Assembly (NCBI GenBank): GCA_014874355.1
Contig: JACWAJ010000066.1
Coordinates: forward strand, 12,417 to 76,416
Origin: a bacterium
GTDB taxonomy: Bacteria; Chloroflexota; Dormibacteria; Aeolococcales; Aeolococcaceae
DNA length: 64,000 bases
Direction: 5' to 3'
Shown: one piece after another, positions 22,983-57,369 of the stretch
Numbering within the stretch: the first letter of the stretch is position 1
Layout: the number at the start of each line of letters is the position of its first letter
The notes under the pieces: model-generated
Told to the model about the DNA's origin: nothing
The model's input: the letters and a program-made list of their open reading frames with translations, nothing else
Databases searched by the model: none
Position numbers and translations under genes: made by a program

Positions 22983-23055
22983 TTTATCCCCAGTATCCAC
23001 GGCCCCTACTGTATAACCGCCCATTCTGCCCGCCATGGCACGCGGTATCCACGGC
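22983..23055. promoter_or_regulatory. DnaA-box-like motifs in the parA promoter region
   Basis: TTTATCCCCA at 22983 and the direct repeat GTATCCACGGC at 22993 and 23045. Confidence 0.3.
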
Positions 23056-23080
23056 ACCCAACCGGCATTCCGCCGCATAA

Positions 23081-24843
<1,763 letters not shown>

Positions 24844-28936: not shown

Positions 28937-29112
28937 AGTGCACCGTCTCAGACTTGGCACGCCGCTGCATCAACCCATCCTCGCCGATCCGTGCGTCAGC
29001 TTCTGCGGTCCTCGGACAAGTACGTTGAGTACGTATCCTCCGGTCCTTGGCGCTTCCTTCGGCTCGGCGGTCTGTGCGGCGCATCAACGCGCCAAGTCTG
29101 AGACGGTGCACT
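28937..29112. repeat. Perfect 22-bp inverted repeats (AGTGCACCGTCTCAGACTTGGC / GCCAAGTCTGAGACGGTGCACT) flanking a 132-bp core. MITE-like element or long-range RNA stem between jag and the M16 peptidase gene
   Basis: Seen directly at 28937..28958 and 29091..29112. The core contains the short repeats gcatcaac x2 and tacgt x2. Confidence 0.5.
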
Positions 29113-29866
29113 AGCGGTTGTTCCAAGAGCGGCGTCCAGCAGGTTCTGCACCCGCCTCTGACGAGCCGGTGGGGTGAATGATGATGCGCCTGGCCGGCTC
29201 CTGCCCCGAGCTCTCAGTCCTCACTCCAGCGTCACCTTCAAGGGTGATGTGGACGATCCGCCGCTCGTAGGCGTGCATCGGATCAAGGGTATAGCGTTCG
29301 CCACTGCGCTTCACCCTATCCGCAAGTCGCAATGCGAGTTCGCGCACGTGCTCCTCCCGCCGCGCCCGGTAGCGTTCGACATCGATGATCACCCGGCGCT
29401 TCTCGACTTCGTCAGCGCTGGTGTCGGTTGCGTCCAGCATCAGGTTGACGACCGTCTGCATCGCTCGCAGGGTCTCGCCTCGCCACCCAATCAGCAAACC
29501 GAGATCGTCGCCGGCGACGTCGATGATCAGTGGAGGAAGCGCAGAGACAATACGCGTCGACGCCGCGGCCAAACGGACGCTCACTCGGGCGGGAATGTTC
29601 ATCCATACCAGCAACTCGTTCACAAGACTCAAGGCACGAGCCGTGCGCCCATCGAGTGCGCTGACTCGAACGCATGCATCCTTGGCGCTCAGCCGTTCAC
29701 CGGGCACAGCCATTGTGGCCTCGTTGAGAACCTCTATAGCGGCGCGGTCCCGTTCAATACCCAACTCTGCCAATGCTCGGGAAATCGCAGTTTCCACATC
29801 GGCACCGTAGGCCTCGACACACTCACCACCAACCCCACTAGTCGCCGTCAGCCCCGGGTTATCCAT
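29111..29866 (-). CDS. jag: Jag/KhpB-like RNA-binding protein (Jag_N + KH + R3H)
   Basis: Position downstream of yidC; C-terminal R3H-like HAYERRIVHITL motif. Confidence 0.8.
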   Translation of the reverse strand: MDNPGLTATSGVGGECVEAYGADVETAISRALAELGIERDRAAIEVLNEATMAVPGERLSAKDACVRVSALDGRTARALSLVNELLVWMNIPARVSVRLAAASTRIVSALPPLIIDVAGDDLGLLIGWRGETLRAMQTVVNLMLDATDTSADEVEKRRVIIDVERYRARREEHVRELALRLADRVKRSGERYTLDPMHAYERRIVHITLEGDAGVRTESSGQEPARRIIIHPTGSSEAGAEPAGRRSWNNR

Positions 29867-29895
29867 ATCGTTCACGTCGTCTCCCGCTTTTTCAC

Positions 29896-30852
29896 CTAGT
29901 CGTTCCGATTGCGAGGTGTTTCCATATTGGCCATCAGGCCGGACTCCGAGGCCCGTGCTGCCGCCTGGGAAAGGCGGCGGCGGCGGTGATCCTCGTGGGT
30001 TAGGTCGGTGACCCGGTGCGCTCCCGGAACCCAAGATGGCATATGGATTGCACCCCAACCGACCAGATAGTGCTGCTGCACGATCATGTACAGGCTCTGG
30101 GTCACCCAGTAGATGGCAATGCCCTGCGCAAACTGGAGTGACATCCACACGATCATGACCGGCATGAACAACGTCATTTGGTTGCTCATGTTCTGCATCG
30201 ATTGCTGCTGCGCGGAAGCGTTGGCCGGCGGCGGGATGAGCATCATCCGCGACTGGACCAGGGTCGCCACGCCCGCGACCACCGGGAGCAACAGCAGCGT
30301 TGGGTGCTGGAATAAGCCGTCGATCCAGCCACGGAAGTACTCGGTTCCACCGCTGGTCTTGGAAATCAAGCAGCAGGCTTCGTGGGCGGTCTGGGTGACG
30401 TTCGGGATCCAGAGAAAGCCCAAGCCTCCCTGCAGGTTCTTACTGGCGTTCTGGATGGCCCAATACAGCGGGAAGATGATCACCGACTGCAGCGCCATCG
30501 GCAGGCAGCCCTTCATCGGCGCCGTCGGACTGATGCCGTGCTCGCGGTAAAGCTTTTGCATCTCCTGGTTGAGCTTTTGCGCCTGACCCTTATAGCGCTT
30601 GCGCAACTCTTGAAGCTCGGGCGCAAGCTTTGCCATCCCCGCTTGGGACTTGCGCATCGTCCGCATCTGCCAGGCGAAAACCGGGAATAGAATTGAGCGC
30701 AAGACCAGTGTCAAGACGATGATTGCCAAGCCGAAAGCGCCAATCGCACTCAGAATCCAAACGTGCTCAAAGACCAGCACCATCTTCTCAAGAGAAAAGG
30801 CGAAAGCCTGGGTCAGCAGGTCGAGTGGGTTGAGGTTGAGTGCGGCAATCAC
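29896..30852 (-). CDS. yidC: Membrane protein insertase YidC
   Basis: Conserved YidC core (…[31 protein letters not shown]). GTG start overlaps the yidD stop. Confidence 0.85.
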
Positions 30853-31136
30853 GCCGTACCCTCGGTTTTGTGCCCCAGGTGCTTGCTCCGGCGAGCTTCT
30901 CGCCAGCTCACATAGGTCTCCGGCACCGGGTCTTCGCCGCTGCCACCCCACGGAGCGCAGCGTGCAATCCGGCGAATCGCCAACCACCAACCACGCCTAA
31001 AGCCGTACTTCTGGATGGCGGAGTATCCATACCACGAGCAACTCGGCTCGTATCTACAGCGGCCCAAAATGCTTAGAACCGGCCCCAACGTCATCTGGTA
31101 AGCCCGAATCAATATCAGGCTGATCTTCGCCATCAT
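30849..31136 (-). CDS. yidD: Membrane protein insertion efficiency factor YidD
   Basis: [18 protein letters not shown]...[19 protein letters not shown] signature; ATGA overlap with rnpA. Confidence 0.75.
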
Positions 31137-31531
31137 TTGTGAGTTGCTTTTTCACCCAGTCGCCGGGTCACCAGATCAGCAACAGTCTCGATCGCACGAT
31201 TGGTATCGGAGTTCAGAGCCGAGTACGGCACGTCCGCAGCAGCGAACCCGGTGGTCACAACGAAGTCCAAACCGGCATGCTTCGAAAGTGGTGACTGCAC
31301 GGCAGCGCGTAGGCGCCGTCGAAGGCGGTTACGATCCACCGCAGTCCGCACGCCTGTGATCGAAAAGCCGATCCGCGCACGTTCTAGCGAATTGGGCGCA
31401 GCGGCGACCCTAACGACGCCGACCGTACACCTTGCGCGCCATGCTCGGACGAACGCAAAGCGTCTTCCGCCACTCAATGCTCCCGGTCGCGTGGACATGG
31501 CGGCCGCAGTCTGCGAGCCCGCCACGGTCAC
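31133..31531 (-). CDS. rnpA: RNase P protein component
   Basis: Basic RNR motif region ([14 protein letters not shown]); GTG start overlapping the rpmH stop. Confidence 0.8.
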
Positions 31532-31674
31532 CTCGCGGGTGCAGGTGTCAGGCGCTTGCGTCCCTTGAGACGCCGTGCCTTGAGCACCGCCCGGCCTCCT
31601 GGCGTCGCCATGCGCGTGCGAAACCCGTGGGTCTTGCGCGCGTACTTCTTCTTGGGTTGAAAAGTCCGCTTCAG
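31528..31674 (-). CDS. rpmH: 50S ribosomal protein L34, apparent CTG start
   Basis: Translation (L)[47 protein letters not shown]. There is no in-frame ATG/GTG/TTG after the upstream TAG. GGAGAAG lies 8 nt upstream of CTG. Confidence 0.8.
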
Positions 31675-31902: not shown

Positions 31903-31933
31903 TTATCCACTAGTGTTTATACGCTGTGGATAA
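31903..31933. promoter_or_regulatory. Pair of inverted DnaA boxes in the rpmH-dnaA divergent promoter region
   Basis: TTATCCAC (31903-31910) and the perfect consensus TGTGGATAA (31925-31933). Confidence 0.7.
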
Positions 31934-32015: not shown

Positions 32016-33500
32016 GTGGTGACTGAAGATTCCACCGGCATGAGATCTGATCTCAGCCCCTTGGCTGTGCCCGATCCACCCGCCGACGAGGCAACGGCCG
32101 AACCGGAGGAGCAATCTCAGGTTGGCTTCGACCCCTCGCAGATATGGCAGGCCGCTCAGGAGGAACTGCGCTTCCAGATCGCCCGCCCAGGCTACGAAGC
32201 GTGGCTTTCGAACACCGTTCTCTTGGAATCTGACGGCAACACCTTCACGATCGGGGTTCCCACCCGCTTGGCCCGGGACTGGGTTATTGAACGCTACGTG
32301 CCCCTCATCAAGGAGACTTTGTCGGGAATGCTGGCGCGTGAGTGCAACGTCATCATCACCGTCGATCCCGCGGCAGCCCCGCCACCCGACGATCCCGCGC
32401 CGATTGCCACGCAAGAGAGTGGTGGCATAGAGAGCACTGATGAGTTCTCGGACGGCACCGCCGGCACGACAACGGACTCCCACCTCAACCCGAATTTTCA
32501 GTTCTCCACTTTTATCGTCGGCAACTCCAGCCGCTTTGCCCACGCCGCCTGCAAGGCGGTAAGCGACGCGCCCGGGAAAGCCTACAACCCGCTGTTTTTG
32601 TATGGAGGAGTGGGTCTCGGCAAGACTCACCTGATGCACGCCATCGGACATGCGGTCCGAGAGAAGAACCGAAGGGCAAAGGTCACCTACGTCAGCTCGG
32701 AGAAATTTATGAACGAGATGATTGCGGCGATCCAGGCAAACCGCACTCATGAGTTTCGAATGCGGTATCGCACCGTTGACGTCCTGCTAATCGACGATAT
32801 TCAGTTCCTTGCAGGCAAGGACCGCACCCAGGAAGAGTTCTTTCACACGTTCAACGCCCTTCACGAGATCCAGAAGCAGATCGTTGTGTCAAGTGACCGC
32901 CCTCCTAAAGAGATCCCCACGGTAGAGGATCGGCTTAGAAGCCGTTTCGAAGGCGGGCTGATGGCAGATATCCAACCGCCCGATTTTGAGACCCGACTAG
33001 CAATTCTTAACTCCAAGCTGGGGTCCCATCGCCGGCTTGTCCCCGAGGAAGTGTGTTCCTTCATTGCTCACAGAATCCACACGAACATCCGCGAGCTTGA
33101 GGGTGCCCTCATTCGCGTCCTGGCCCACGCCTCTATCAACGACCAGCCCGTGACATTGGACGTGGCTCAGCGCATCCTCCAAGACGTGCTCCCAGCCAAC
33201 GAAAGTGCCCTCATCACCATCGAAGCCATCCAGGACACGGTTGCTGCCTACTACGGCACTTCGATTGATGAAATGAAGGGAAAGCGACGGGACAAACATA
33301 TCGTTTTTCCCCGCCAGGTGGCGATGTACCTCATTCGCGACGATATAGAGACCGCACTCACGGTAATTGGCTCAGCGTTTGGTGGTCGCGATCACACAAC
33401 TGTGCTCCATGCTTGCGAGAAGATCAAGGACTTGCTCACAGAAGACACCAAACTCCAGGTTGACGTCCGCAATATCCGTGAACAAATCCAGTCGCGATAG
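32016..33500 (+). CDS. dnaA: Chromosomal replication initiator DnaA
   Basis: Walker A GGVGLGKTHL, sensor motifs, C-terminal DnaA-box-binding HTH. GC ~56%, below the flanks. Confidence 0.95.
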   Translation: MVTEDSTGMRSDLSPLAVPDPPADEATAEPEEQSQVGFDPSQIWQAAQEELRFQIARPGYEAWLSNTVLLESDGNTFTIGVPTRLARDWVIERYVPLIKETLSGMLARECNVIITVDPAAAPPPDDPAPIATQESGGIESTDEFSDGTAGTTTDSHLNPNFQFSTFIVGNSSRFAHAACKAVSDAPGKAYNPLFLYGGVGLGKTHLMHAIGHAVREKNRRAKVTYVSSEKFMNEMIAAIQANRTHEFRMRYRTVDVLLIDDIQFLAGKDRTQEEFFHTFNALHEIQKQIVVSSDRPPKEIPTVEDRLRSRFEGGLMADIQPPDFETRLAILNSKLGSHRRLVPEEVCSFIAHRIHTNIRELEGALIRVLAHASINDQPVTLDVAQRILQDVLPANESALITIEAIQDTVAAYYGTSIDEMKGKRRDKHIVFPRQVAMYLIRDDIETALTVIGSAFGGRDHTTVLHACEKIKDLLTEDTKLQVDVRNIREQIQSR

Positions 33501-33753
33501 ATCGAGGGTAGAACGTGTGGAGAACCTTGCTAGATGCTGTGGAAAGACCTGTGGTCTCTAATCCACTGTGGAGAAGGTCTTTACTAGACCATGGTTGTCC
33601 CCACCCAGCAGCGGCTTGTCCTCAGGCGTCACAATTCCGATCGGGCCTTTATCCCCGCCATCCCCACCACTACTACATATACTCTTTTATATATTCCCTA
33701 ACTCTTCTAGCTTATCTTCTGGGTATAAACCTTAAGTCAAGGACTTTTTCTCA
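33501..33753. other. oriC candidate: cluster of DnaA-box-like 9-mers followed by an AT-rich DNA unwinding element (33671-33745)
   Basis: Near-consensus boxes: TGTGGAAAG (its complement cTTTCCACA), TGTGGAGAA (its complement TTCTCCACA), TTGTCCCCA, TTGTCCTCA, TTATCCCCG. Then ctactacatatactcttttatatattccctaactcttctagcttatcttctgggtataaacctt in a ~68% GC genome. Confidence 0.65.
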
Positions 33754-34872
33754 ATGAAATGCACCGTCAGTCCATCTGCGCTAAGCACCTGCATTGGACT
33801 TGCTGCACGTGCCGTATCGCCTCGTTCTACCCTTCCAGTGTTGAGTAATCTGCTGATAGAGGCCAAGAACGAACAACTCACAATTACGGCCACCAATCTA
33901 GACCTCAGTATTTCTACGAGTGTTGAGGCCACGGTTCTAGAAGAGGGGCGAACCACCATCCCTGCCCGTCTTTTCAGCGACTATGTGGCATCTCTACCAG
34001 AAGTGCCATGTGCTTTGGAATTGGACCCCACAACACAGATCACCAAAATTACGTGTGGCACGCTGCGTACCAACATGCATGGGATTGATGCCGCAGAATT
34101 CCCGCCGCTGGCAGTGCGCCAACCGGATGTTACAGTACAGGTTGGATCTGAAGAACTGGAACGTGCCATTGCTCAGACGGCAATGGCAGCCAGCAGCGAC
34201 GAGGCTTCGCCGGTGCTCACAGGCGTTCTCTTACAGATTGAAGGCACTAGGCTTACTCTGGCTGCCACCGATCGCCACCGGTTGGCAGTGAAGACGCTGG
34301 AGGTGGAGGTTAAGGGTGAGCTTCCCAAGGGTGGTGGAGTGATCGTGCCAGCACGGCATCTAAGCGAGGTTGCGAGGGCAATCAACCCTAGCCGGCCAGT
34401 GGTGGGTATCAGCTTTGCTGAGCAGCGAAACCAGATTTTCTTCACCATAGGTAACGTGGAAATTACATCACGTTTGATCGACGGGAATTATCCGAATTAC
34501 GCTCAGGTTATTCCGAGTCAAGCAACGACAACAGTGAGTTTGGATACCGATGTTCTCTTGCGTAGTGCCAAGACGGCCTCTGTATTAGCTCGCGATGCCG
34601 CCAATCCCGTAAGGCTTCACGTTGCCGACAACATGGTAACCTTGATAGCCAAGACAGCCGAGGTTGGAGATCATGAAGCTCCACTGAACGCGAAAGTTAC
34701 CGGTGACGATGTGAAAGTCGCTTTCAATGCGAAGTACATGCTTGACGCACTTTCCGTACTTGGTTCTGACGAAGTGCAGTTGAGTTTCAACGGTGCGTTG
34801 CAACCCGGTGTCATTCGTCCGGTTGACACCGACGACTACCTGTGCATCATCATGCCGGTGAGGGTTCCCTAG
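33754..34872 (+). CDS. dnaN: DNA polymerase III beta sliding clamp
   Basis: Full-length DnaN (372 aa). GC ~52%, with codon usage distinct from neighbours. Confidence 0.9.
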   Translation: MKCTVSPSALSTCIGLAARAVSPRSTLPVLSNLLIEAKNEQLTITATNLDLSISTSVEATVLEEGRTTIPARLFSDYVASLPEVPCALELDPTTQITKITCGTLRTNMHGIDAAEFPPLAVRQPDVTVQVGSEELERAIAQTAMAASSDEASPVLTGVLLQIEGTRLTLAATDRHRLAVKTLEVEVKGELPKGGGVIVPARHLSEVARAINPSRPVVGISFAEQRNQIFFTIGNVEITSRLIDGNYPNYAQVIPSQATTTVSLDTDVLLRSAKTASVLARDAANPVRLHVADNMVTLIAKTAEVGDHEAPLNAKVTGDDVKVAFNAKYMLDALSVLGSDEVQLSFNGALQPGVIRPVDTDDYLCIIMPVRVP

Positions 34873-34983
34873 CGACGCGCACGCTGAACATTACGCCACC
34901 AATACACCCGCGAACGCCGTGTCCTGGGACCTCTTCAACACCCGAAAGCAAAGTCAGGTCCACGTTGTGCTGGACGGCGGCCT

Positions 34984-35607
34984 TTACAACGGCGGTGGCG
35001 AGGACATGCAGGGACACATGGTCGAGCGAGTGGCCGCACGCGAAAGGACTGACACGAATGCCACCGGAGCGGCCAGGATGAGCGGGCAGAGTGTTGCCAC
35101 CACAAGGACCGGGACGGTCCGGGCGAAGTCGCCGGACACGACCCATGCGGCGATCGCAGTGGCCAGCGTGACGAGCAGGAACCATAGGGCATAGCGATCA
35201 GCCAACCGGACGACACGTGCGATCAGCGATCGCAGTTCCCGGCGGGCGCGCCCGGTTGCCCACGCCTCGAGGGTTCGGCCCGTGGCGAGCATTACGCTGA
35301 TGACCGCGCCGGCCAACTCCTCGTGGACGGCCAAAGCTCCGCACAGGGCCAGGAGGGCGATCACGTCAACGCCCAGACGACCGTGCCGTAGGCTGCTGAC
35401 CATCCACCAAGCCGCCACCCCTGCCCCAAGGAGGGTGGCCAGTGACCACGCCACGGTGCCGGCTGGATGGTCTCCGACGAGATACGCGATGCATCCGCTT
35501 GCCAACCCTGCCACCGTGGTGCCCAGGAAGATGCCCTCCCAGGGGAGATCACGCCTCATTCTGTCATCGCTGTTGTCAGTCATGGCGCGTATCGTCAGTG
35601 TCTCCAC
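34984..35607 (-). pseudogene. Degenerate remnant of a P1B-type heavy-metal ATPase (TM helices only; A-domain and P/N-domains missing)
   Basis: …ELAGAVISVMLATGRTLEAWATGRARRELRSL (TM4 signature) is directly followed by a TM6-like CPx segment (TLCPLILAAPVA) with no actuator domain. The ORF stops before any DKTGT motif. Confidence 0.5.
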
Positions 35608-35623
35608 TGGCGTTGTGCCAGGG

Positions 35624-37384
35624 TCAAAGGTTCACTTTCTCCCGCCTTTTTGAGGCATAAGCCCTTTGCAATGGCGTGGGCAGGAAGAACACCAGCCCAA
35701 ACGTCAGCGACCACACGGTGACGTTGTAGATGAGAGAGTATTTAAAGGCATAGGTGAAGTTGTCTGCGAGCCGGGTTGTGGTCTCCTTGGAGATCACATC
35801 GTGAATATTGGCGTAGGCCTTGAGCAACTCGGGAGAGGCTTTAGGTGGCGGCAGCAACGTCTGTTGAAGGGCCACACAGCTGTTGGGTGAGGCGGAAGGG
35901 TCGTTCGCGGCGGCGGTGTCGTCGAAGCAGTAGCTAAAGCCGGTGTCAATGGCTGAGGTAATGGAAGCTGTGGCTCCTGCCGTAGTCAGTTGCTGTTGGA
36001 ACGCCGGCGAACGTTGTGCAGAAACAGTGGGTGCGTAGGTGCCGAGTAGCCCGAAGTAGACGACGCCTACGATTGCCACCCCGAGTGCTCCCGCAACCTG
36101 CTGACCGGTGGTGAGCACACCCGATGCCGAGCCGGCGTGGTCATGGTGGACGCCGGCAAGGATGATGTTGGCGAGCGGTGCGATGACGAAGCCCATTCCG
36201 AGGCCACCCATTGCAAGCGAAGGAATGAGATCGTACCCGCGGAAGGTGTTGTCTGCGCTGGTCGCAGTGAGGGTTTCCCAGAGGACAAACATTCCAAGGG
36301 TGATCGATGCCGATCCAATCAAGAGAATTAGCTTGCCCAGCCGGGGATAAAGCCGGATAGACAGGGTCGATCCGAGCGCGGCGGTGATGGCGAACGGAAT
36401 CGTTGCAACTCCAGCTTGCAACGGTGAAAATCCATGGCCGAGTTGTAAAAACAGTGATAGAGTGAGAAAGAATGCGGGAATACCGGACAGGAAGATGCAG
36501 ATAACCGCAAGGCCCACCAGGAACGACCGGTTGCGGAAAAGCGCGGGCTCGACGAGAGGACAGTTACTGGTTTTCGCACGCCAATGGTTGTACTGGTCAA
36601 AAATGGCGAATACGACGAGTGACAAGGCCATGGATGTAAACGTCCACCACGGCCACCCTAAGCTCCGACCCTCGACGAGGGGGTACACGAGCAGAAACAG
36701 GGCAAGCGTTGCCAGCAGTGCTCCGGGGATGTCGAGTCGGGTTGCACGTGGTGCCCTGGACTCATCCAGGGCCAAGATCGCGGCAACCACTGCTCCGATT
36801 CCAAGCGGGACATTGACGAGAAATATCGGTCGCCAGCCGAGGCCGAGGATATTGCCTTGTATGAGAATGCCACCGATAAGTGGCCCGCTGATGGCGGCTA
36901 TGGCAACAACTCCGCCATAGATCCCAAACGCTTTGGTTCGGTCGTGCGGGGCGAAGTTGACCTGCAGGACGGAGATGACCTGCGGGTACATCAGAGCGGC
37001 CATGAGGCCTTGGAATACGCGGGCGCCCACCAGAAAACTACCCGAACCAGCGAGGCCGCAGGCCACGGAGGCAAGTGTGAATCCACCGACACCGATGATG
37101 AACAGACGTTTACGACCGTAGATATCGCCGAGCCGCCCCCCGGTGATCAGGGTGACGGCGTAAGCAAGTTGATAACCGGCCACGACCCACTCGATCTGCG
37201 AGAAAGTTGCATTGATTTCAGTGTGGATCGAGGGAATCGCTACGTTCACGATCGAGATGTCCAGCAGGATCATGAACGAAGCTGAGAGAACAGTCGCCAG
37301 AGCGGTCCAGCGGCGCGACGTACTGGTGTGTGGACCGGGTGGATCGACAAATGTCGTTGAAGGGCTGAGACTCTCGCTGCTCAA
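35624..37384 (-). CDS. MFS transporter, DHA2 (14-TMS EmrB/QacA-like) drug:H+ antiporter family
   Basis: MILLDISIVNVAIPSI, GRLGDIYGRKR motif, 14 hydrophobic segments. Confidence 0.85.
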   Translation of the reverse strand: MSSESLSPSTTFVDPPGPHTSTSRRWTALATVLSASFMILLDISIVNVAIPSIHTEINATFSQIEWVVAGYQLAYAVTLITGGRLGDIYGRKRLFIIGVGGFTLASVACGLAGSGSFLVGARVFQGLMAALMYPQVISVLQVNFAPHDRTKAFGIYGGVVAIAAISGPLIGGILIQGNILGLGWRPIFLVNVPLGIGAVVAAILALDESRAPRATRLDIPGALLATLALFLLVYPLVEGRSLGWPWWTFTSMALSLVVFAIFDQYNHWRAKTSNCPLVEPALFRNRSFLVGLAVICIFLSGIPAFFLTLSLFLQLGHGFSPLQAGVATIPFAITAALGSTLSIRLYPRLGKLILLIGSASITLGMFVLWETLTATSADNTFRGYDLIPSLAMGGLGMGFVIAPLANIILAGVHHDHAGSASGVLTTGQQVAGALGVAIVGVVYFGLLGTYAPTVSAQRSPAFQQQLTTAGATASITSAIDTGFSYCFDDTAAANDPSASPNSCVALQQTLLPPPKASPELLKAYANIHDVISKETTTRLADNFTYAFKYSLIYNVTVWSLTFGLVFFLPTPLQRAYASKRREKVNL

Positions 37385-37686
37385 ACCGGAGACTTCCCCT
37401 CAAGCGGGATGAAGCGAAATCTCTGAACCACCTTGGCGCCCAGACGTTCATTGATAGCGTCGATCACGCGAGGGGAGTCCATGTGGATCTGGTGAGCCAG
37501 AGCGGAGTTGGTGGAAGCAACCACCAGCGTACCGCGTTCCAGCCGCTCGGCACGGCAGAACGGAAGCATGGCCGGACCCATCACGACAGCAAATACTTCG
37601 CGAATCTGTACGTCTCGTACCTGCTGGCGGATTCCCATGGCACGGAGCGTGCGATCGAGGAGGTTGGAAACGGGCTCTTCTTCCAC
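37381..37686 (-). CDS. DUF721-domain protein (DciA-like, typical recF-neighbour in actinobacteria)
   Basis: 101-aa ORF immediately after recF, overlapping the MFS start. Its size and position match the Rv0004-type DUF721 proteins. Confidence 0.6.
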   Translation of the reverse strand: MEEEPVSNLLDRTLRAMGIRQQVRDVQIREVFAVVMGPAMLPFCRAERLERGTLVVASTNSALAHQIHMDSPRVIDAINERLGAKVVQRFRFIPLEGKSPV

Positions 37687-37701
37687 TGGAATGATCTTAT
37701 T

Positions 37702-38850
37702 TCACCTCACCGGCCGAATCGATCCAGCATCCACTTCGAAGAAATGAATTTCGGTACCCCCAAGACCGTGCAGTGCGGCCGGTTCTGCCGTGGTCACAAG
37801 TACTTGAATGCCAGATTCCGCCACGGTCGCAAGCAGGGACTGGCGCCGAGTTTCATCGAGTTCTGATAGAACGTCGTCGAGGATCAGTACTGGTGAGACG
37901 TCCGCCGTGGCACGGATGTGAGCCACCTCGGCAAGCTTGAGCGCAAGCACGATGCTTCTCTGCTGACCCTGCGATGCGGCTGTGCGTGCGGGGCGACCAG
38001 CAAGTAGGACTTCGACGTCGTCGCGGTGAGGGCCCACAAGGCTGATTCCGCGGGCCACCTCTTCGGCGCGGCGCGCCTGAAGCCTTGTGCTGATGGCAGA
38101 TCGGGCCTGGTCAACATCCCCGGTCGTGGGGTCGAAGACCGCACCACCGGCAACGTAGTTCAGGCCGAGGGCTTCACCGTCCCCACCGAGTTGGACCAGT
38201 GCCGGCACCGCCCAATGCAGGAGGTCTTGCACGAGTCGAGCGCGTGCGACGCGAACACGGGCCCCTGCATCAATGAACTCAGCCTCGAATGATGCCAGCG
38301 CAGACAGGCTGCCGCCGCCATCGCGCAGTTGTCGCATCAGGGCATTGCGCTGCTCAAGTGCGCGCCGGTACCGGTGAAGCTCGGCCATTGCACGAGGATC
38401 GAGCTGGCTGAGCACCACGTCGAGGAGGCGACGCCGACCCTCGGGGCCGGCTTTGACGAGGAGGAGGTCGTCCGGCCAGAAGAGAACCACCGGGCAAATG
38501 CCCAGCAAGCTCCGAGCCGGACGCGGCTTGCCGTTGACGGTGGCCGAGCGGCCGACATGGCGTGTGGCGGTGTCGTATGTGAAGCGCACGCCGAGATCGG
38601 CAGGCCCGTCAAGTCGGTGCACATGGGCTTCAACCAAGCAGGCCGTGCTTCCCCAGCGGAAAAGGTCGGCACTACTTGCGGCCCGTGGCGACCGGCTCAA
38701 GGTGAGTGTGGCCACGGCCTCGAGCAGGTTGGTCTTTCCCTGGGCGTTGCGTCCGCCCATGACGTTCAGCCCGGGACCGAACTCGACAGTCGTGTCGGCG
38801 TAGTTGCGGAACTCGTAGAGACGAAGGCTTTCGATTCGGCAGGCGTTCAC
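37702..38850 (-). CDS. recF: DNA replication and repair protein RecF
   Basis: Walker A GGRNAQGKTNLLEA, signature and Walker B LILDDVLSELD. Confidence 0.9.
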   Translation of the reverse strand: MNACRIESLRLYEFRNYADTTVEFGPGLNVMGGRNAQGKTNLLEAVATLTLSRSPRAASSADLFRWGSTACLVEAHVHRLDGPADLGVRFTYDTATRHVGRSATVNGKPRPARSLLGICPVVLFWPDDLLLVKAGPEGRRRLLDVVLSQLDPRAMAELHRYRRALEQRNALMRQLRDGGGSLSALASFEAEFIDAGARVRVARARLVQDLLHWAVPALVQLGGDGEALGLNYVAGGAVFDPTTGDVDQARSAISTRLQARRAEEVARGISLVGPHRDDVEVLLAGRPARTAASQGQQRSIVLALKLAEVAHIRATADVSPVLILDDVLSELDETRRQSLLATVAESGIQVLVTTAEPAALHGLGGTEIHFFEVDAGSIRPVR

Positions 38851-40017
38851 TTAAGAGCGTGGGACGATACCGCCGCGGGCCATGGACACGATCAGCTCGG
38901 CGATGTCGGCGGTTGCTTCGGGACGTGCCACCCGCATCACGGCCTCGCGCAATCGTGCAAGTCCAGGCGATCCAGGGCGCGAGAACTCAGCCACGGTATC
39001 GACAAGTTGGTCGATGTCAGGAACGTAGCGGCCGGCACCAGTGTCAACCACCCAATCGACGTTGCCCCGCTCCTGCCCGTGCAGGTACCAGGTGAGTAGC
39101 AAGGGGGTCTGGCAGCAGAGCGCTTCTGCGATGGTTCCCGGCCCCGCCTTGGTGGCGATGACGTCGGCGGTGCGGACCCATTCGGCCATGTTGTTGACAA
39201 AGCCGTGGACCGCAACCGGCGATCCACGGTGGTCGCACAGTCCGGCAAGGCGCTTCTGGGCACTGCGGTTGCGGCCACATATGACCACCAGCTCGATCGG
39301 AAGGCTAGCCTTCGCCAGGGCCCGGGCGCGGCGGGCGATCCCTCCCGAGCCGTCGGCGCCGCCGCAGAGGAGAACCACGAAGCCGTCGGGGGCGACGCCC
39401 AATTTGAGCCGCAGCGCGGAACGCTGGTCGGGCGTTAGCGGTGGCCGGGTGAAGCTGACGTCCACGGGAAGCCCGAATGGAAAGCAGCGTTCTCCAGGAA
39501 TGCCGACCCGGCGTGCCCGGTCGAGCCCACCGGGCGATGGTGTGACGACGGCGTCGACATCCCGGCAGGCCCATGCCGCGTGGACGTCAACCAGGTCGGT
39601 GATGACGGTGATGAGCGGTACGCGTGTGACACCGGGCCGCCTCACGGCTCTGGCGGCAACGTGGTTCAGCAGCGGATGGAACGACACGACGGCGGCGGGT
39701 TGCAGCCGCTGGCAGAGGCGGGCCAACCCGGATTCCACCGACCTGAGAACGGTCGACTTGAGCAAGCTGACCGCGGGTTTGGAGTTCGTGGAGTAGTACA
39801 ACGCCCCCCACATCCAGCTCGCGTGCTGGATTACGGTCCCGTAGAGATCGGTGGTGTGACGAAGCCACGGGGAGGCCGTTCCGGCGAAGGGATCAACAAT
39901 GTGGATGTCGAACTCGCCTGGGTGGTCAACCTCGAACTGAGAGCGGACAGCGTTGGCGCTTGCGCGGTGACCTCCGCCAGTGTCGGCGATGAGAAACAGA
40001 AGTGGTTGCGCAGTCAT
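38851..40017 (-). CDS. GT28-family glycosyltransferase (MGDG synthase/UgtP-like, MurG fold)
   Basis: N-terminal LFLIADTGGGHRASANAV motif. Its stop abuts the recF start codon with no gap. Confidence 0.7.
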   Translation of the reverse strand: MTAQPLLFLIADTGGGHRASANAVRSQFEVDHPGEFDIHIVDPFAGTASPWLRHTTDLYGTVIQHASWMWGALYYSTNSKPAVSLLKSTVLRSVESGLARLCQRLQPAAVVSFHPLLNHVAARAVRRPGVTRVPLITVITDLVDVHAAWACRDVDAVVTPSPGGLDRARRVGIPGERCFPFGLPVDVSFTRPPLTPDQRSALRLKLGVAPDGFVVLLCGGADGSGGIARRARALAKASLPIELVVICGRNRSAQKRLAGLCDHRGSPVAVHGFVNNMAEWVRTADVIATKAGPGTIAEALCCQTPLLLTWYLHGQERGNVDWVVDTGAGRYVPDIDQLVDTVAEFSRPGSPGLARLREAVMRVARPEATADIAELIVSMARGGIVPRS

Positions 40018-41741
40018 GTGGAGAAGGCTATCCCAACGGCTTCTGCGCGGCGGGTGAGGGTGGTGAGTAACGCGGGTGCACTGCCATCGGCATTCTCGAT
40101 CCAAGCCTGAACGCTGCCGCCACCCCCCACAGCGAGGTAGGCGATCTGACGTCCGTCGGGAGATACTGCAGCGCTGGCGAGATCGGAAGGAACCGGTCCG
40201 CCAGGCAGCACTACCAGCCCCCTGCCCAGCGTGAGGCGGGCCAGATGGGAGTCGCCGGCGTCCGGGCGTTTGGCAACCACCAGGGTTGCGTCGTCAGCGA
40301 ACCCAACTGGTGTCGCGTCGGCGTCGAGCAGCATGGGTGCCGCCGCGGAGCCTCCAAGTGAGACCACCCAAGTGCCGTCGAGGCGACTGTCCGCCGTGCT
40401 GTCGCGGCGTAATGCGAGGAGACGTCCATTGGGCGACAGCACTGGATTGGTGGCTGAGCCGGCGATTCCGGGAGCGGGGTAGCGTGCGGCGAGCGTAGGA
40501 CTTGCGAGATCGACGTGTGGGAGCTGTCCGGCGGCTGCGACGGGCAGCACGATCAAACTGCTGTCGGCATTCCAGACCGCCCCACCTACGAGAGGGTCGC
40601 CCGGGGGCAGGAGGATGGTGCTGCCATCGGAGTGATGGATGGCGATTCGCCCGGCTTGGCCGTAGGCGAGGTCGCCGCTGTGGGACCATGAGGGATAGCC
40701 GGCGCCGCTCACGTCGAAGGTATCACGGCCGGTGATGACATCGATGACGCGCAGTTTCTGTGGCACCGAGGCATCGAGGGGTTGCTGCACGACGGCAACA
40801 TAGCGGCCACCCGGGGACACTGCCACTGCGCCAAGCGCCACCTTCTCGGTGCTCACGTCGAGAACTCGAACTGTCCGGACAGGGTCGCCTTTTTGCGCAG
40901 GTGTCGTACTCATCATCAGCACCTCGGTGGCGGGGCCACCGTCGGGGCCGACCAGGACCGCCAGGTGGCGGCTGTTGCCCAACTGGCCGGTGGTGAAGTC
41001 AAAGTGGCGAGCCTGCGCCAGAGGCTGTCCGAAAGCGTCGACGGCGCGGGTCGAGACATTGAGGGTGTATGCGCGATTGGGGAGCAACATCTGATTGGGC
41101 AACAACACAAGACGGTTGAGGTAGAGGGTGTTGCGAACCACCTTCAAGTTCGCGACAGGTGGGGTTAGCGAGATCGCCCCGGCGGTGTTGGTGGCATCCA
41201 TCGGACGGTCGAACTCGACTGCGATCGGGGCATCGACGGCAATGCCGGTAGAGCCGTTGGTAGGGGTTGTGGCCGAGATCGTTGGGGCCGCTTGGGAGGT
41301 GAGATCCCAATGGTGGTCGAGGACGTTGACCACGCCCGCGGTGTCTCGCACGCCAGCGTCGATACTGAAACCGTACTTGGTGCTGGGGGCAAAGACGGCA
41401 CCGGGGTGTTTGAATACGAATCCGGGGCGATCTGTGAGCCATTCGACGCGACACGGTGCGTCCGCCCTGGCGCCAAAGGCAGCGTCGACGTCGCAATGGG
41501 CCAGTGCCGGACTGACGTGAAAGCGCCCACGGACTGAGTTTTGGTCCAGCGTGCGATTAAAGACGACGGTGATTGGCTGGTTGGCGGCTACAGAAGTCGA
41601 GCCCCGGTTGGGTTCGATCGAGATGATCTGAGGCGGGGCAGAGAAACACCCGGATAGCGTCGCCACCAATACTGCCGCGAAAGCCAGTTGCAAGGCTGTA
41701 CATCCGACAACCGAGGCTAAGGTTGTCGCTTTTCGTGTCAT
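40014..41741 (-). CDS. Lipoprotein with bacterial Ig-like domains and a C-terminal TolB-like beta-propeller
   Basis: Lipobox LSGCFS; repeated SbsA/Big-like ~90-aa segments; C-terminal repeats (SPDGRQIAY, SPNGRLLAL). Confidence 0.55.
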   Translation of the reverse strand: MTRKATTLASVVGCTALQLAFAAVLVATLSGCFSAPPQIISIEPNRGSTSVAANQPITVVFNRTLDQNSVRGRFHVSPALAHCDVDAAFGARADAPCRVEWLTDRPGFVFKHPGAVFAPSTKYGFSIDAGVRDTAGVVNVLDHHWDLTSQAAPTISATTPTNGSTGIAVDAPIAVEFDRPMDATNTAGAISLTPPVANLKVVRNTLYLNRLVLLPNQMLLPNRAYTLNVSTRAVDAFGQPLAQARHFDFTTGQLGNSRHLAVLVGPDGGPATEVLMMSTTPAQKGDPVRTVRVLDVSTEKVALGAVAVSPGGRYVAVVQQPLDASVPQKLRVIDVITGRDTFDVSGAGYPSWSHSGDLAYGQAGRIAIHHSDGSTILLPPGDPLVGGAVWNADSSLIVLPVAAAGQLPHVDLASPTLAARYPAPGIAGSATNPVLSPNGRLLALRRDSTADSRLDGTWVVSLGGSAAAPMLLDADATPVGFADDATLVVAKRPDAGDSHLARLTLGRGLVVLPGGPVPSDLASAAVSPDGRQIAYLAVGGGGSVQAWIENADGSAPALLTTLTRRAEAVGIAFST

Positions 41742-41761
41742 GCCACCTCTCGACCGCGCGA

Positions 41762-42991
41762 TTACAGTGGCTTGGCCAGCTCCAGGTCGACGTCGATCCT
41801 GTTGACGACTTCTGTGCCGCTGCGCACCTCGATATGCGAAGCACGTTCTGCCGCCAGCTTGCCGACCGTGGCCAGTTCTGTCTGCGGCTTGCGTGCCGTC
41901 TCGGTGTACGCGCCCAGCACCGCGCCATCGTGGAGCAGGATGACGCCCATCTCGGTGCTATGGGTGATCACAACTGACCCGGTGACCTTCTTTTCGGTCA
42001 GGTACTCGATGAGGGCATCGAAATTGACGAAGCGACCAAGCAACCCTTTGAACATCTGGGTTGCACCGAAGAGTTGTCCCAACGAGGCGACCAGGTCTCC
42101 GTTGATGTCCACCACGTCAAGGTGGCCGGCGCCGGCCTCCATCTGGTGCCGGACCAATTGGAACGCTTCCGCGCCCTGCGTGACGCGGCCTTCTGAGTCC
42201 GCCAGCGCTTCAATCAGTTCGCCTGCTTGAAAGACCAGCGTCCCCACGAAGCCTTCGCCCTTGAGGTAGACGTAGCCCGTGTGGTTGTCGCCCTTGAGGG
42301 TGCGTAGCAGCTTGGGAAAGTCGACGAACGCGCTCTTCAAGCCCTTGTAGGTTGTCTTGCCGTCGGGTAAGGGGTACATCGTTTCTAGGGCTGGCGATTC
42401 CGTAGCAGCAGGCTCTGGCGCCTTGGCCCACGAATCGTCAGGTTGGGTCTCGGGCGCGGCTTCCGTTTGCCAGGAAGCGTAGCTTGGAGCCTCAACAGCA
42501 CCACCCTGGTCGGTAGCCCAGTCGGCATACGGGGGGGTGACAGGGATGTCGACGGCCGCTACGGCCGGTTCGGGCGCGGGGTAGTCGACCGCCGCCTCGA
42601 TGGGAGCGGATTCCCAGGTGGTGGCTTCCGCCTCGGCCACCGCTTCGGGCTCGGTTGGCGGCGTCACCACCACCCCGCCGCGTTGCTCGGCGAGGGCGAT
42701 GAGGTCGGCCGGTGAAACCTTGATGGTTTCCTCGGCCGGGAGTTTGGCTCGCGGATCGAATTGGAAAACGCCTTCGGTGAAGGCAAGTGCGTTGACCACG
42801 ACCTCCTCACCCTGGTCGGTTGCGTCCGAAGCGTGGAAAAGGTGTCCGAAGAGGAAGTAGAGGGAGCACGTTGTGGAGCCGGTTTCCAGTGTGAGGGTAC
42901 CGGTGGCTCGCTCTGACTGCAGCGATTGAAGGAGCGATGCCAGGGGGACTTCTTGGAGCGAACCCTGAGTCTGCAAGGGGGGACTCCTCAT
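41762..42991 (-). CDS. DUF4388 (PatA-N/PATAN-like) domain protein with Pro/Glu/Ala-rich linker
   Basis: N-terminal LQEVPLASLLQSLQSERATGTLTL, a second DUF4388-like segment, and a C-terminal roadblock-like fold. Start at ATG 42991. Confidence 0.5.
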   Translation of the reverse strand: MRSPPLQTQGSLQEVPLASLLQSLQSERATGTLTLETGSTTCSLYFLFGHLFHASDATDQGEEVVVNALAFTEGVFQFDPRAKLPAEETIKVSPADLIALAEQRGGVVVTPPTEPEAVAEAEATTWESAPIEAAVDYPAPEPAVAAVDIPVTPPYADWATDQGGAVEAPSYASWQTEAAPETQPDDSWAKAPEPAATESPALETMYPLPDGKTTYKGLKSAFVDFPKLLRTLKGDNHTGYVYLKGEGFVGTLVFQAGELIEALADSEGRVTQGAEAFQLVRHQMEAGAGHLDVVDINGDLVASLGQLFGATQMFKGLLGRFVNFDALIEYLTEKKVTGSVVITHSTEMGVILLHDGAVLGAYTETARKPQTELATVGKLAAERASHIEVRSGTEVVNRIDVDLELAKPL

Positions 42992-43159
42992 ATGTGGGTG
43001 TCCGCGGCGGTGCCACGGCAACTTTGGAAAACTTGGCCGAGATGGCCCCTCAGAGAGGCCGTATAGTAGCAACGAAGCCCCTGCCATGCGTTGAGCGTTA
43101 CCTCCATCGCGTGGTTCGGCCGCTGGCGGTGGAGGGACGTAAGCCTTAGAGTCGGGCGC

Positions 43160-43813
43160 GTGACCGAGCATTCCGAGCCGAACGGCGAAGCAGCACCAGA
43201 CGACATCCGGCAGCTACCCACCTACGAGGAGTTCGCATCGAACTTGCTGGAGTCGCTCGACGCCGCAGCCCTGTTGCTTGAGGACGTGCGCCATGAGTAC
43301 GAACCAGGGATCGGGGAACGTCGCTTCGAGTGCACCGTGCGCCTCCCCTCGCCAGAGCCGATGTCTCGTTATCACGTGCATGTGGGGTTCGCGTGGGATG
43401 CGCTGCTGACGTATCTGGGCGCCTACGGTCCGGGCGCGGACTGCGAGGCCTATCACGACGACTCCGAAGCCGCGGATTGTCCCCACCAGCATCTCCCTCC
43501 CCAGGCACTCGTTGAAGTGGAAGCGGAGTTCATCCTGGGCGATGGCGGGTACGAGTTGCAAGAACTTGGCGAACTCTCGACCTGGGTCGAAACCGCCCAG
43601 CGCGTGCTGAGCAAGGCGTTTCCGGGAGACGACAAGCCATCCGTGCATGTGGGTCTTGCGGCGCTGGTCAACACCGTACTGGTCGAGAACTTCACAGCTG
43701 AGCACTCGTGGCTGATCGACTTCGAGAACCAGCCCGAACTGCGGGGGATCGGAGAGCAGATCCAGGCCGCGCTGAAGATCATTCCGGCACTGGCGGATCG
43801 TTTGCCTATTTAA
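43160..43813 (+). CDS. Hypothetical protein
   Basis: 217-aa ORF with no recognisable motif; GTG start chosen. Confidence 0.35.
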   Translation: MTEHSEPNGEAAPDDIRQLPTYEEFASNLLESLDAAALLLEDVRHEYEPGIGERRFECTVRLPSPEPMSRYHVHVGFAWDALLTYLGAYGPGADCEAYHDDSEAADCPHQHLPPQALVEVEAEFILGDGGYELQELGELSTWVETAQRVLSKAFPGDDKPSVHVGLAALVNTVLVENFTAEHSWLIDFENQPELRGIGEQIQAALKIIPALADRLPI

Positions 43814-43892
43814 ACGGGGAGGGCCACCCTCCCGCGGCGCCCCTCGTGCACCGGCTCGCATACGCTCGCTTTCACGGGGAGGGCCACCCTCC
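43814..43892. terminator. Two copies of a 19-nt hairpin-forming repeat (ACGGGGAGGGCCACCCTCC), 60 bp apart, each directly after the stop of one of two convergent genes
   Basis: Copies at 43814 and 43874; GGGAGGG/CCCTCCC stem. Confidence 0.5.
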
Positions 43893-44606
43893 TCTGATCC
43901 TGGCGGCCGGTTCCAGGGGGTCGACGCCGTCTTCCCTGTAGCGCGCGCAGCGTTGCGTAGCCAACGCCACGGCCTGGGGGGCTATGTCGGCTCCGATAAA
44001 AGAGCACTGGTGCCGCAGTGCGGCGATGGCGGCTGAACCGCTACCTACGAACGGGTCACACACTGTCATGCCCGCCTCAACGCTGCCCTCTAGCATGCGC
44101 GTAAAGAGTGCGACGGGCTTCTGGGTGGGGTAGGCGCCGCGGTGGACCCGCTTGATGGCCCAGACGTCGGGCAGGTCTCGGCGGCTCAACTTGCGGCGGC
44201 CCTTGCTGGCGAAGACGACCAGTTCGTGACGGCGCCGGAAGTAGTGTCCCATTCCCAGGTTGACCTTGTCCCACACGATGACGTTCTTGACCTCGAACAC
44301 CTCACGCAGGAGCGCTCCCAGTGTAAGCAACGAGAAACTGTCGAACATGACATAAACATGCCGGTCGTCACGGAGAACTCGATGGCATTCTCGCAAGAAT
44401 GCCAGGAATGTTTCCGGGTCGTCGTGGAACTCACGGAACCACCGCTCGTTGTTGGGGTCCTGGTAGCGACCGACTATGCGGCCGTGGCCGAACCCCATAT
44501 GCTGATTCATGCCGGAATACGCCGGATCGGTGGTGATTACGTCGACGCTGGCGTCGGGCAGAGAACTCAGGAACGTCAGGCAGTCGACTTGCTCGATACG
44601 GACCAC
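43872..44606 (-). CDS. Beta-class amino-DNA methyltransferase (N6-adenine or N4-cytosine)
   Basis: Motif IV-like TDPAY and motif I DPFVGSGS in beta-class order. GTG start just after the stop of the upstream small ORF. Confidence 0.75.
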   Translation of the reverse strand: MVRIEQVDCLTFLSSLPDASVDVITTDPAYSGMNQHMGFGHGRIVGRYQDPNNERWFREFHDDPETFLAFLRECHRVLRDDRHVYVMFDSFSLLTLGALLREVFEVKNVIVWDKVNLGMGHYFRRRHELVVFASKGRRKLSRRDLPDVWAIKRVHRGAYPTQKPVALFTRMLEGSVEAGMTVCDPFVGSGSAAIAALRHQCSFIGADIAPQAVALATQRCARYREDGVDPLEPAARIRGGWPSP

Positions 44607-44610
44607 GGAA

Positions 44611-45030
44611 CTAAGCGTCGGAGGTGGGGGTGTCACCGTGATCGTCGGGAGACTCTGGCCCGCCGGGGCCGAACAGACCCATGCCGCGAAGTAGGTTGGT
44701 GAGTGCCTCGGGACCGCCGACGTCATCCTGGATGCGATCGAACACTCGCGCCATGAGTTCTTGGAGTTGGGGGTCGCCGGCAAGTTTCTCTTGTAGGCCG
44801 CCCATCTGCGACATGAGATCTTTGATGGCGGCCTCCTGGGCCACCTGCATCAATACAGGCTGGGATGCCGCCGCGATAACCATCTGCGCCTGCTGGCGTA
44901 GCATTTCGAACCCCTGACAGGCGATACATGTCCCTTCGTGGCGGCAGCGGCAGAGTTTTGTCTTGAGGCTATCGATCTCGCGGTGGAGACCGGAGAGGTC
45001 AACGCCACTGTTGCCGGGATCTTCGTCCAT
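44611..45030 (-). CDS. Hypothetical small protein with Cys cluster (CRCRH…CIACQGF, putative Zn ribbon)
   Basis: 139-aa ORF co-directional with, and abutting, the methyltransferase gene. Confidence 0.4.
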   Translation of the reverse strand: MDEDPGNSGVDLSGLHREIDSLKTKLCRCRHEGTCIACQGFEMLRQQAQMVIAAASQPVLMQVAQEAAIKDLMSQMGGLQEKLAGDPQLQELMARVFDRIQDDVGGPEALTNLLRGMGLFGPGGPESPDDHGDTPTSDA

Positions 45031-45251
45031 GTGTAGATCGTACCCGTGGAACGCAAGTTACAGTCTCCCGGGTCGGGGGGCCGTGCCACCGATGTGCCAC
45101 GGCATGGTGATAGGCTATAGTTCAGATCGACGGGAGCCCCAGGGCCGCGCTTAGGTTTGGGTGATCCGAAGCCTCGGTAAGTTCCGCGCTTTTGAGCCGT
45201 TCCAAAGTGCGTGCCCCAGCATCCCGGCATTGTTGATAAGGCGTTCGGCGG

Positions 45252-57368: not shown

Positions 57369-57369
57369 T

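Follow-up and report, generated by a model that had tools for sequence, protein, structure and literature searches.

A putative replication origin between dnaA and dnaN in an uncultured Dormibacterota bacterium, flanked by a dnaN gene of unusually low GC content

We analysed a 64-kb stretch of contig JACWAJ010000066.1 (64,000 nucleotides, hereafter the window) from an uncultured Dormibacterota bacterium, in which a candidate chromosomal replication origin (oriC) lies in the spacer between dnaA and dnaN. The dnaA gene (32016–33500, plus strand) encodes 494 amino acids when read from a GTG at 32016, its exact start being uncertain, and dnaN (33754–34872, plus strand) is intact and encodes 372 amino acids. 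Both proteins carry full sets of Pfam domains, DnaA_N, Bac_DnaA and Bac_DnaA_C in the former and three beta-clamp domains in the latter. DnaA is 70–78% identical to its Dormibacterota orthologues. The closest database relatives of DnaN, leaving aside an identical entry, are 60–76% identical, and those that bear a name come nearly all from Candidatus Dormibacterota or Dormibacteria. The spacer itself, the proposed unwinding half of the origin, spans 253 bp (33501–33753) at 47.4% GC in a window of 62.5% GC overall. The left edge of the origin region is formed by rpmH, encoding ribosomal protein L34 (31528–31674, minus strand), which was recognized from its sequence and KRTFQP motif and which has a PF00468 match at the same position in the related locus L085.

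A scan of species-representative genomes supplied 66 Dormibacterota loci and 14 Anaerolineae loci for comparison (80 in total), and two additional near relatives (L084 and L085) were retrieved by exact protein look-up. The origin architecture was compared in about 60 related Dormibacterota loci of approximately 21 kb each. Spacers were aligned for 46 of them and their lengths recorded for 63, the box pair upstream of dnaA was scored in 56, the position of the lowest-GC 60-mer in 60 and GC skew in 49. Skew in the window was computed over the entire 64 kb.

The spacer contains eight matches to the DnaA box TTATCCACA at two or fewer mismatches. Over 5000 dinucleotide shuffles of the same sequence, the count averaged 0.74 ± 0.85 and never exceeded 5, let alone reached eight. 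The spacer is the densest 300-bp box cluster of the window, as no 300-bp stretch elsewhere held more than five matches at this threshold. At one or no mismatch the window contains 10 boxes compared with 5.3 ± 2.3 expected by chance, an excess of about 2-fold, and 4 of the 10 fall in the intergenic regions on either side of dnaA, which between them cover less than 1% of the window. Within the spacer, the box scan identified minus-strand sites at 33516 (TTCTCCACA), 33538 (CTTTCCACA) and 33567 (TTCTCCACA) and a plus-strand site at 33559 (TAATCCACT). The sites in this interval (33516–33575) align with conserved TGTGGA-type blocks of the relatives. Two further plus-strand sites follow at 33595 (TTGTCCCCA) and 33616 (TTGTCCTCA; 33595–33624), the first of which aligns with a conserved TTG(C/T)GCACA block.

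Downstream of these sites are two abutting plus-strand boxes, TTATCCCCG and CCATCCCCA (33649–33666), with two and three mismatches, respectively. In relatives this pair reads TT(A/G)TCCCC followed by (A/C)TGTCCCCA, and the TT.TCC.C columns are at least 90% conserved across the 46 spacers. We propose, by analogy, that the pair serves as the nucleation site of the DnaA filament and is the counterpart of boxes 6 and 7 of Bacillus subtilis. Directly 3′ of the pair lies a conserved CTAC core, which in the window begins a series of DnaA-trio-like repeats, CTA CTA CAT ATA CTC TTT TAT ATA (33670–33693, plus strand; complement 3′-GAT GAT GTA TAT GAG AAA ATA TAT-5′). The first CTA is 12 bp past the better box of the tandem pair, and this gap is identical in L001, L035, L044–L056 and B. 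subtilis.

The trio-like repeats run into a 75-bp A+T-rich stretch (33671–33745, 32% GC), the putative DNA unwinding element, which had been noted together with the box-like 9-mers in an earlier reading of the sequence alone; both features stand. The lowest-GC 75-mer of the 64 kb (30.7%) falls within the spacer, and outside it no 75-mer is below 38.7%. Of 60 relatives, 43 have the lowest-GC 60-mer of their locus at the same spot in the spacer, ending about 25–30 bp before dnaN. A distal minus-strand box-like site, TTATACCCA (33720–33728), lies within the conserved block TCTGG(T/G)(G/T)A(C/T)AAC, where the motif TGG.GA..AA is at least 90% conserved. In relatives a conserved TCTGGTGACAAC stands some 35 bp ahead of dnaN; read on the other strand it is box-like (TTGTCACCA). 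The distal site may be a flanking DnaA site or the −10 region of a dnaN promoter. Scans for consensus promoters and terminators performed no better than on shuffled sequences. Of 63 relatives, 45 had spacers of 243–265 bp and the others had longer ones. The 46-spacer alignment places at fixed positions three reverse TGTGGA-type boxes, a forward TTG(C/T)GCACA box, the tandem pair, the CTAC repeat and an A+T-richer block.

A second group of boxes lies about 85 bp upstream of dnaA. It consists of an inverted pair, TTATCCACT-13 nt-TGTGGATAA (31903–31933), in which TTATCCACT occupies 31903–31911 on the plus strand and a perfect TTATCCACA, the only perfect box in the window, occupies 31925–31933 on the minus strand. 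Two boxes at one or no mismatch were reached upstream of dnaA in 2 of 5000 shuffles. The near-perfect pair that had been reported between rpmH and dnaA is real, and it is conserved across the phylum: all 56 relatives have one to four boxes at one or no mismatch at this site (mean 2.5; background, 0.027 per 300 bp). A forward TTATCCAC(N) and a reverse TTATCCACA or TTGTCCACA start exactly 22 bp apart in 46 of the 56, and many loci have a third box, TTGTGCACA, midway between them, which places the boxes one helical turn apart. The pair probably constitutes an autoregulatory operator of dnaA, the auxiliary half of a bipartite origin, or both. Its conservation would be expected of an operator and is compatible with a bipartite origin too, and these data do not separate the two.

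GC skew of the plus strand is −0.074 over positions 1–33500 and +0.053 over 33754–55000, and the cumulative skew reaches its minimum at 34124, 370 bp from the spacer. In the 64 kb examined, the strand-composition switch coincides with the candidate origin. Gene orientation is not the cause of this switch, as minus-strand genes occur both immediately to the left of dnaA (27.1–31.7 kb) and to the right of dnaN (35–45 kb), and farther to the left the skew remains negative over many plus-strand genes. Skew was negative on the left and positive on the right in 42 of the 49 relatives.

Box enrichment, the A+T-rich element, the skew minimum and the phylum-wide conservation of the architecture all point to the spacer, where the origin had correctly been placed from the sequence alone. 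In our reading it is a DnaA-dependent oriC of canonical form, like those of Bacillus or actinobacteria. The explanation that we favour, and that we consider probable when all of its parts are taken together, is that the region is the ordinary chromosomal replication origin of this bacterium, sited between dnaA and dnaN. The locus would follow the plan common in Gram-positive bacteria and actinobacteria, with rpmH diverging from dnaA, then oriC, then dnaN. DnaA would assemble on an array of about seven to eight boxes in the 253-bp spacer, where the tandem pair TTATCCCCG/CCATCCCCA would position an oligomer of ATP-DnaA. The oligomer would extend onto the CTA-CTA trio-like repeats 12 bp downstream and melt the adjacent element of 32% GC, after which the helicase would be loaded, presumably with DciA, whose gene lies 3.6 kb away. 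The upstream pair would autoregulate dnaA, act as an auxiliary half of the origin in the manner of incAB in B. subtilis and aid initiation through looping, or both. We infer these steps from the anatomy of the locus and the B. subtilis model (PMC6669920, PMC8287927).

Several observations weigh against this reading. The first concerns the origin module designated the basal unwinding system, or BUS (Pelliciari et al. 2021, PMC8287927), which is defined by a box with at most two mismatches, optionally followed by a tandem second box with at most four, by a spacer of 0–16 bp (peak 10–13 bp) between box and trios, and by at least three consecutive 3′-NAN-5′ trios with the consensus 3′-GAT-5′. The tandem pair lies within the box limits, and the 12-bp gap falls inside the 10–13 bp peak. 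The B. subtilis module, written 3′–5′ in the supplement of that paper, is AATAGGTGT TTAGGTGT CCGG GATGATAATGAAGATGAT, and its trios begin GATGAT; in the same notation the window reads AATAGGGGC GGTAGGGGT GGT GAT GAT GTA TAT GAG AAA. However, the conserved site of the window has two perfect trios, an interruption and then three more, and so falls short of three consecutive trios at the position where they are expected. Longer runs occur in L001 (four trios) and L084 (seven). The full rule held in only 23 of 66 spacers, compared with 3.6% of shuffled spacers. A literal search with this rule in the window selected a different and probably spurious site (the box at 33595 with CTT GTC CTC). Because the literal rule misses the conserved site and holds in only a third of the spacers, we relied on conservation in the alignment, and we describe the module as BUS-like and do not claim that it belongs to the class.

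The remaining points concern strand layout. Skew in the relatives is weak (means of −0.033 on the left and +0.013 on the right), and the median position of their cumulative minimum is 2.1 kb rightward of the spacer; at the scale of these loci, skew is dominated by gene-specific composition. In the window, skew becomes negative again (−0.045) over 55000–64000 after about 21 kb of positive values, which could be due to a local inversion, acquired DNA or noise. Finally, an uninterrupted run of minus-strand genes, over 10 kb long (34984–45437), lies just to the right of the proposed origin and would be transcribed head-on to a rightward fork. This run comprises an ATPase remnant, an MFS transporter gene, dciA, recF, an MGDG-synthase-like gene, genes for Big_5 and DUF4388 proteins, an unassigned open reading frame (ORF), a DNA methylase gene and a second unassigned ORF. 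Its core is conserved across the phylum.

The gene order to the right of dnaN had been described as an abrupt loss of synteny, with a decayed P1B-type ATPase following dnaN in place of recF. The remnant does adjoin dnaN, but recF is present (37702–38850, minus strand; TIGR00611 equivalog, 294 bits against a cut-off of 172), preceded by dciA (DUF721, an ancestral helicase-loader family; 37381–37686, minus strand; Pfam PF05258, 61.6 bits), which is convergent with dnaN. The two genes thus lie 2.5–2.8 kb downstream of dnaN on the opposite strand, and recF occupies the same position and strand in 58 relatives. In Dormibacterota loci with enough flanking sequence, M16 peptidase, jag, yidC, rnpA and rpmH genes on the minus strand are followed by dnaA and dnaN on the plus strand and then by dciA, recF, MGDG-synthase-like, Big_5 and DUF4388 genes, all on the minus strand. 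In most loci dciA adjoins dnaN and ends within tens of bases of its stop codon. Because dnaN converges with dciA and recF in all loci with sufficient flank, this layout is ancestral to the phylum and is not a local break. The canonical order dnaA-dnaN-recF-(dciA/DUF721)-gyrB does not apply here or in the Dormibacterota loci with enough flank, where recF and dciA are on the opposite strand, and in the window gyrB was not among the genes identified at 25.7–49.6 kb. A 640-amino-acid plus-strand gene that follows dnaN in L002–L009 was considered as a candidate gyrB and rejected, as it encodes an ABC exporter; its neighbour encodes a Zn-dehydrogenase. In the Anaerolineae loci (L067–L080), flanks of up to 10 kb around dnaN, shorter on some contigs, contained no homologue of dnaA, recF or the other neighbours. 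Thus the dnaA-dnaN linkage of Dormibacterota is not common to these Chloroflexota relatives.

What did change in the subclade of the window is the junction between dnaN and dciA. The 3′–3′ junction of these genes is a variable cargo slot in this subclade and is empty in most of the phylum. In the window (34873–37384) it holds the ATPase remnant and a gene for a DHA2-family MFS efflux transporter (35624–37384, minus strand; Pfam MFS_1; TIGR00711, 234 bits against a cut-off of 230). The MFS gene stands alone in L001 and is accompanied by Zn-dehydrogenase and ABC exporter genes in L002 (11117–14127), by an ABC exporter gene in L008 and by a GDPD gene in L084 (7821–10361), while L085 (6383–7563) carries DUF1801 and RibD_C genes. 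Among the scanned loci, the MFS gene was found only in L001–L003, L005, L007, L008, L023, L063 and L065, and it also occurs in L084. The claim of broken synteny holds only superficially; what the subclade added to the ancestral layout is cargo at this junction. From the gene orders compared, the apparent anomaly is best described as an ancestral inversion plus inserted cargo.

The ATPase remnant (34984–35607, minus strand; 207 amino acids, 66% GC) is a truncated P1B-type, or heavy-metal, ATPase. It matched Pfam E1-E2_ATPase at 21 bits, under the cut-off, and NCBIfam ATPase-IB families at 52–59 bits against cut-offs above 313, covering only profile positions of about 155–232. Its homologues are P-type ATPases that align over 30–69% of the ORF, and a tblastn search found no match to it in any of the 80 related loci. 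Many of the homologues (among P0122–P0135) are themselves short ORFs of 280–360 amino acids that correspond to the N-terminal part of P-type ATPases. Since they lie on long contigs (up to 470 kb) and do not owe their shortness to a contig end, P1B-ATPase genes in split or truncated form may be widespread in these environments.

The dnaA-dnaN block had also been singled out for its base composition. Measured GC was 57.3% for dnaA, 47.4% for the spacer and 53.2% for dnaN. The flanks are less GC-rich than the roughly 68% previously stated, as the window averages 62.5% and the neighbouring genes 58–66%. We compared GC content at third codon positions (GC3) over 59 ORFs of the window (mean 0.733, standard deviation 0.061). 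The dnaN gene has the lowest value of all, 0.536 (z about −3.2), and is thus compositionally distinct as proposed. Its GC3 is uniformly low along the gene (0.48–0.62) and GC steps up at the gene end. Codons ending in A or T, which had been noted as well, are 1.5–3 times commoner in dnaN than in nine neighbouring genes; for example, ATT occurs at 29.5 per thousand in dnaN and 10.7 in the neighbours, and ACA at 24.1 and 9.1. In contrast, dnaA is no outlier at synonymous sites (GC3 0.689, z about −0.7), and the claim that it too is distinct was not borne out there. Its GC deficit sits at first and second codon positions. Its orthologues are similar, with GC 3.7 points under that of their loci and a normal GC3 of 0.90.

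In relatives, dnaN has a GC3 of 0.74–0.98 and a GC content only about 2 points under the locus. In the three closest relatives, dnaN GC3 is 0.79–0.89 and the spacers are 54–61% GC; the unwinding element of relatives is about 43% GC. The low GC of the spacer and dnaN is thus specific to this genome. The window as a whole (62.5% GC) lies under every relative (locus GC 65–73%), and all ten orthologues in the window have a GC3 below the phylum mean, by 0.10 to 0.23 in general and by 0.33 at the extreme, in dnaN. We take the low GC of the spacer and dnaN to be the far end of a shift to lower GC across the genome, one that occurred in situ. This is the least certain step of our explanation. Lineage-specific A+T enrichment in situ is the most economical reading, and it leaves the peak in dnaN unexplained.

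Replacement of the dnaA-dnaN block by horizontal transfer had been put forward as one source of its low GC. In single-gene neighbour-joining trees, L001 was the sister of the window for DnaN, DnaA, YidC and DciA alike. The deeper placement of the window among Dormibacterota clades was unstable from gene to gene, and only the sister relation to L001 was used. DnaN identity between the window and L001 (75.3%) was as predicted from DciA and YidC and slightly above the prediction from DnaA (residual +0.025). The spacer is colinear with those of relatives in the alignment, and the flanking synteny is intact. DnaN is thus congruent with DnaA, YidC and DciA, and the transfer proposed earlier is, by the criterion named with it, refuted as far as these comparisons go. 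Considered as an acquired island, the region has a deviant composition with a sharp boundary for dnaN and the spacer only, where the step falls at the end of dnaN; its left border is syntenic, and its right border adjoins the ATPase remnant, which is unique to this genome. For marks of mobility (tRNA genes, integrases and flanking repeats), the search was limited to an Rfam scan of 30.5–38 kb, which returned nothing apart from a sub-threshold match described below. The sequence comparisons do not support replacement from outside the lineage.

Replacement from within the lineage fares better. A homologous recombination event could have replaced the spacer and dnaN (about 33.3–34.9 kb) with an allele from a close, unsampled Dormibacterota lineage of lower GC. 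The dnaN profile counts in its favour, as a uniform drop in GC3 that stops at the gene end resembles a replaced tract or a gene-specific effect more than diffuse drift, and its value is the lowest of 59 ORFs where the three closest relatives are high. In addition, judged by RecF, the MGDG synthase and other flanking proteins, DnaA and DnaN have diverged from relatives by about 5 points more than expected, and the right boundary would coincide with the rearranged junction at the ATPase remnant. The GC3 profile and the excess divergence also count against drift in situ. The excess divergence is modest (z −1.1 to −2.9), however, and could equally stem from compositional drift at first codon positions. 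Moreover, no sampled relative is so low in GC (all loci are 65–73%), L001 is sister to the window in DnaN as in the other three proteins, DnaN is no more diverged than DnaA predicts, the spacer is colinear and all other genes of the window are also shifted to lower GC3. We consider such a replacement unlikely.

A process tied to the origin itself would account for the low GC in another manner. In one lineage, synonymous GC would have collapsed locally over the origin spacer and the whole of dnaN, with protein sequence and origin architecture kept. Two processes could be responsible: mutation of DNA that becomes single-stranded again and again at initiation, and selection that tunes unwinding or beta-clamp dosage. 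We regard this as quite unlikely; if true, it would offer a rare view of compositional remodelling near an origin in a natural lineage.

The simplest form of that idea had been offered earlier, namely that low GC in dnaN and the spacer is maintained by selection for duplex opening; a variant would have A/T-ending codons selected for their effect on dnaN expression. The origin lies at the centre of the trough, the spacer (47% GC) is below those of the closest relatives (54–61%), and the central box position upstream of dnaA is also A+T-enriched in this genome. However, about 60 relatives share the architecture with a dnaN GC3 of 0.74–0.98 and an unwinding element of about 43% GC, so a low-GC dnaN is not required by this origin. 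The low GC also runs 1.1 kb past the unwinding element through the whole of dnaN, far more than opening would need, and no equivalent trough exists on the dnaA side. Selection of this kind is very unlikely to be the cause.

Turning from composition to function, the spacer could be a mere DnaA-regulated promoter region of dnaN, with the true unwinding site at a distant locus, for example, or in the rpmH-dnaA region. In favour of this, the two strongest boxes (no mismatch and a single mismatch) sit upstream of dnaA and outside the spacer, parA is preceded by another box cluster (22984–23102), transcription to the right of the spacer would oppose the fork, and skew in relatives is weak. Nevertheless, the A+T-rich element, the tandem box and trio geometry and the top box density are all in the spacer and all conserved; the rpmH-dnaA region is 57% GC and lacks an A+T-rich block comparable to that of the spacer; and the skew minimum is at 34124. 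We give this possibility little credence. An assembly or binning chimera of two organisms, which a metagenome-derived contig with an abrupt GC step at the end of dnaN might bring to mind, was rejected as scarcely credible, since positions 32754–35872, which span the 3′ part of dnaA, the spacer, dnaN, the ATPase remnant and the start of the MFS gene, are base-for-base identical in three separately assembled sequencing runs and the gene order agrees with that of relatives.

The remaining observations concern the genes to the left and the second box cluster. To the left of rpmH are rnpA (31133–31531), yidC (29896–30990) and jag (29111–30148), all on the minus strand and assigned from the ORF list, sequence reading and Pfam. 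The rpmH gene seemingly has a non-canonical start codon throughout Dormibacterota (65 loci among L001–L066, L084 and L085, including the window). Of the codons that immediately precede the universal KRTFQP, 51 are ATC, 9 ATA and 4 GTG; in the window the codon is CTG, which is the apparent start (31672–31674, minus strand). A GGAG-like Shine-Dalgarno sequence lies 6–9 nt upstream in 65 of 65 loci, and 27 of the 65 lack a canonical in-frame start as far up as the preceding stop codon, which in the window is a TAG six codons upstream. The Rfam match mentioned above was to AsdA, the dnaA antisense RNA (32601–32680, minus strand; 28 bits against a gathering score of 52), and was rejected as most likely reflecting conserved dnaA coding sequence. 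The second box cluster (22984–23102) consists of forward sites only, TTATCCCCA-g-TATCCACGG, GGTATCCACGG and GTGTCCACA, and is directly upstream of and overlaps the start of parA (23093–23902), which is followed by parB (23899–24843). With five sites at two or fewer mismatches in 300 bp, it is the second densest in the window.

Taken together, the proposed origin is of the canonical kind and belongs to a poorly studied phylum; the GC drop in dnaN is a minor unexplained oddity and does not amount to a new system. Dormibacterota are known here only from metagenome assemblies, and in a search of open-access papers, the two that name both Dormibacterota and oriC mention each term just once and deal with unrelated topics. 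The comparison provides a sequence-level origin model for the phylum, comprising box positions, tandem box and trio geometry, the unwinding element, the operator-like upstream pair and the neighbouring dciA. It backs the view of the box-trio-A+T module as widespread, and in practice it anchors contig orientation, coverage-based estimates of replication rate and annotation in these genomes.

In actinobacteria such as Mycobacterium and Streptomyces, whose genomes are high in GC, the origin lies in a dnaA-dnaN spacer with numerous TTGTCCACA-type boxes, and recF, DUF721 (dciA) and gyrB follow dnaN. The window resembles them in its high GC, in the location of oriC, in its TTGTCC-type boxes and in the adjacency of dciA/DUF721 and recF. 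It differs in its short spacer (about 250 bp with about eight boxes), in the inversion of the recF-dciA unit relative to dnaN and in the lack of gyrB among the genes identified at 25.7–49.6 kb. The origin of Helicobacter pylori is bipartite, with oriC1 and oriC2 flanking dnaA (PMC8235120). The window likewise has box clusters on both sides of dnaA, the cluster on the far side from the spacer being conserved phylum-wide, with the putative unwinding element in the downstream part, although its upstream pair could be purely a dnaA operator.

The oriC of B. subtilis is also bipartite, with incA and incB upstream of dnaA and incC between dnaA and dnaN, the latter containing boxes 6 and 7, DnaA-trios and an A+T-rich element. 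Unlike those of B. subtilis, the boxes of the window are degenerate (TT[A/G]TCCCC type), two perfect trios precede the interruption where B. subtilis has six, and the presumed helicase-loading partner encoded near the origin is DciA. The two origins share the rpmH-dnaA-oriC-dnaN context and boxes on both sides of dnaA, and in each of them abutting tandem boxes face CTA-CTA repeats, which start 12 bp from the better box and give way to an A+T-rich stretch.

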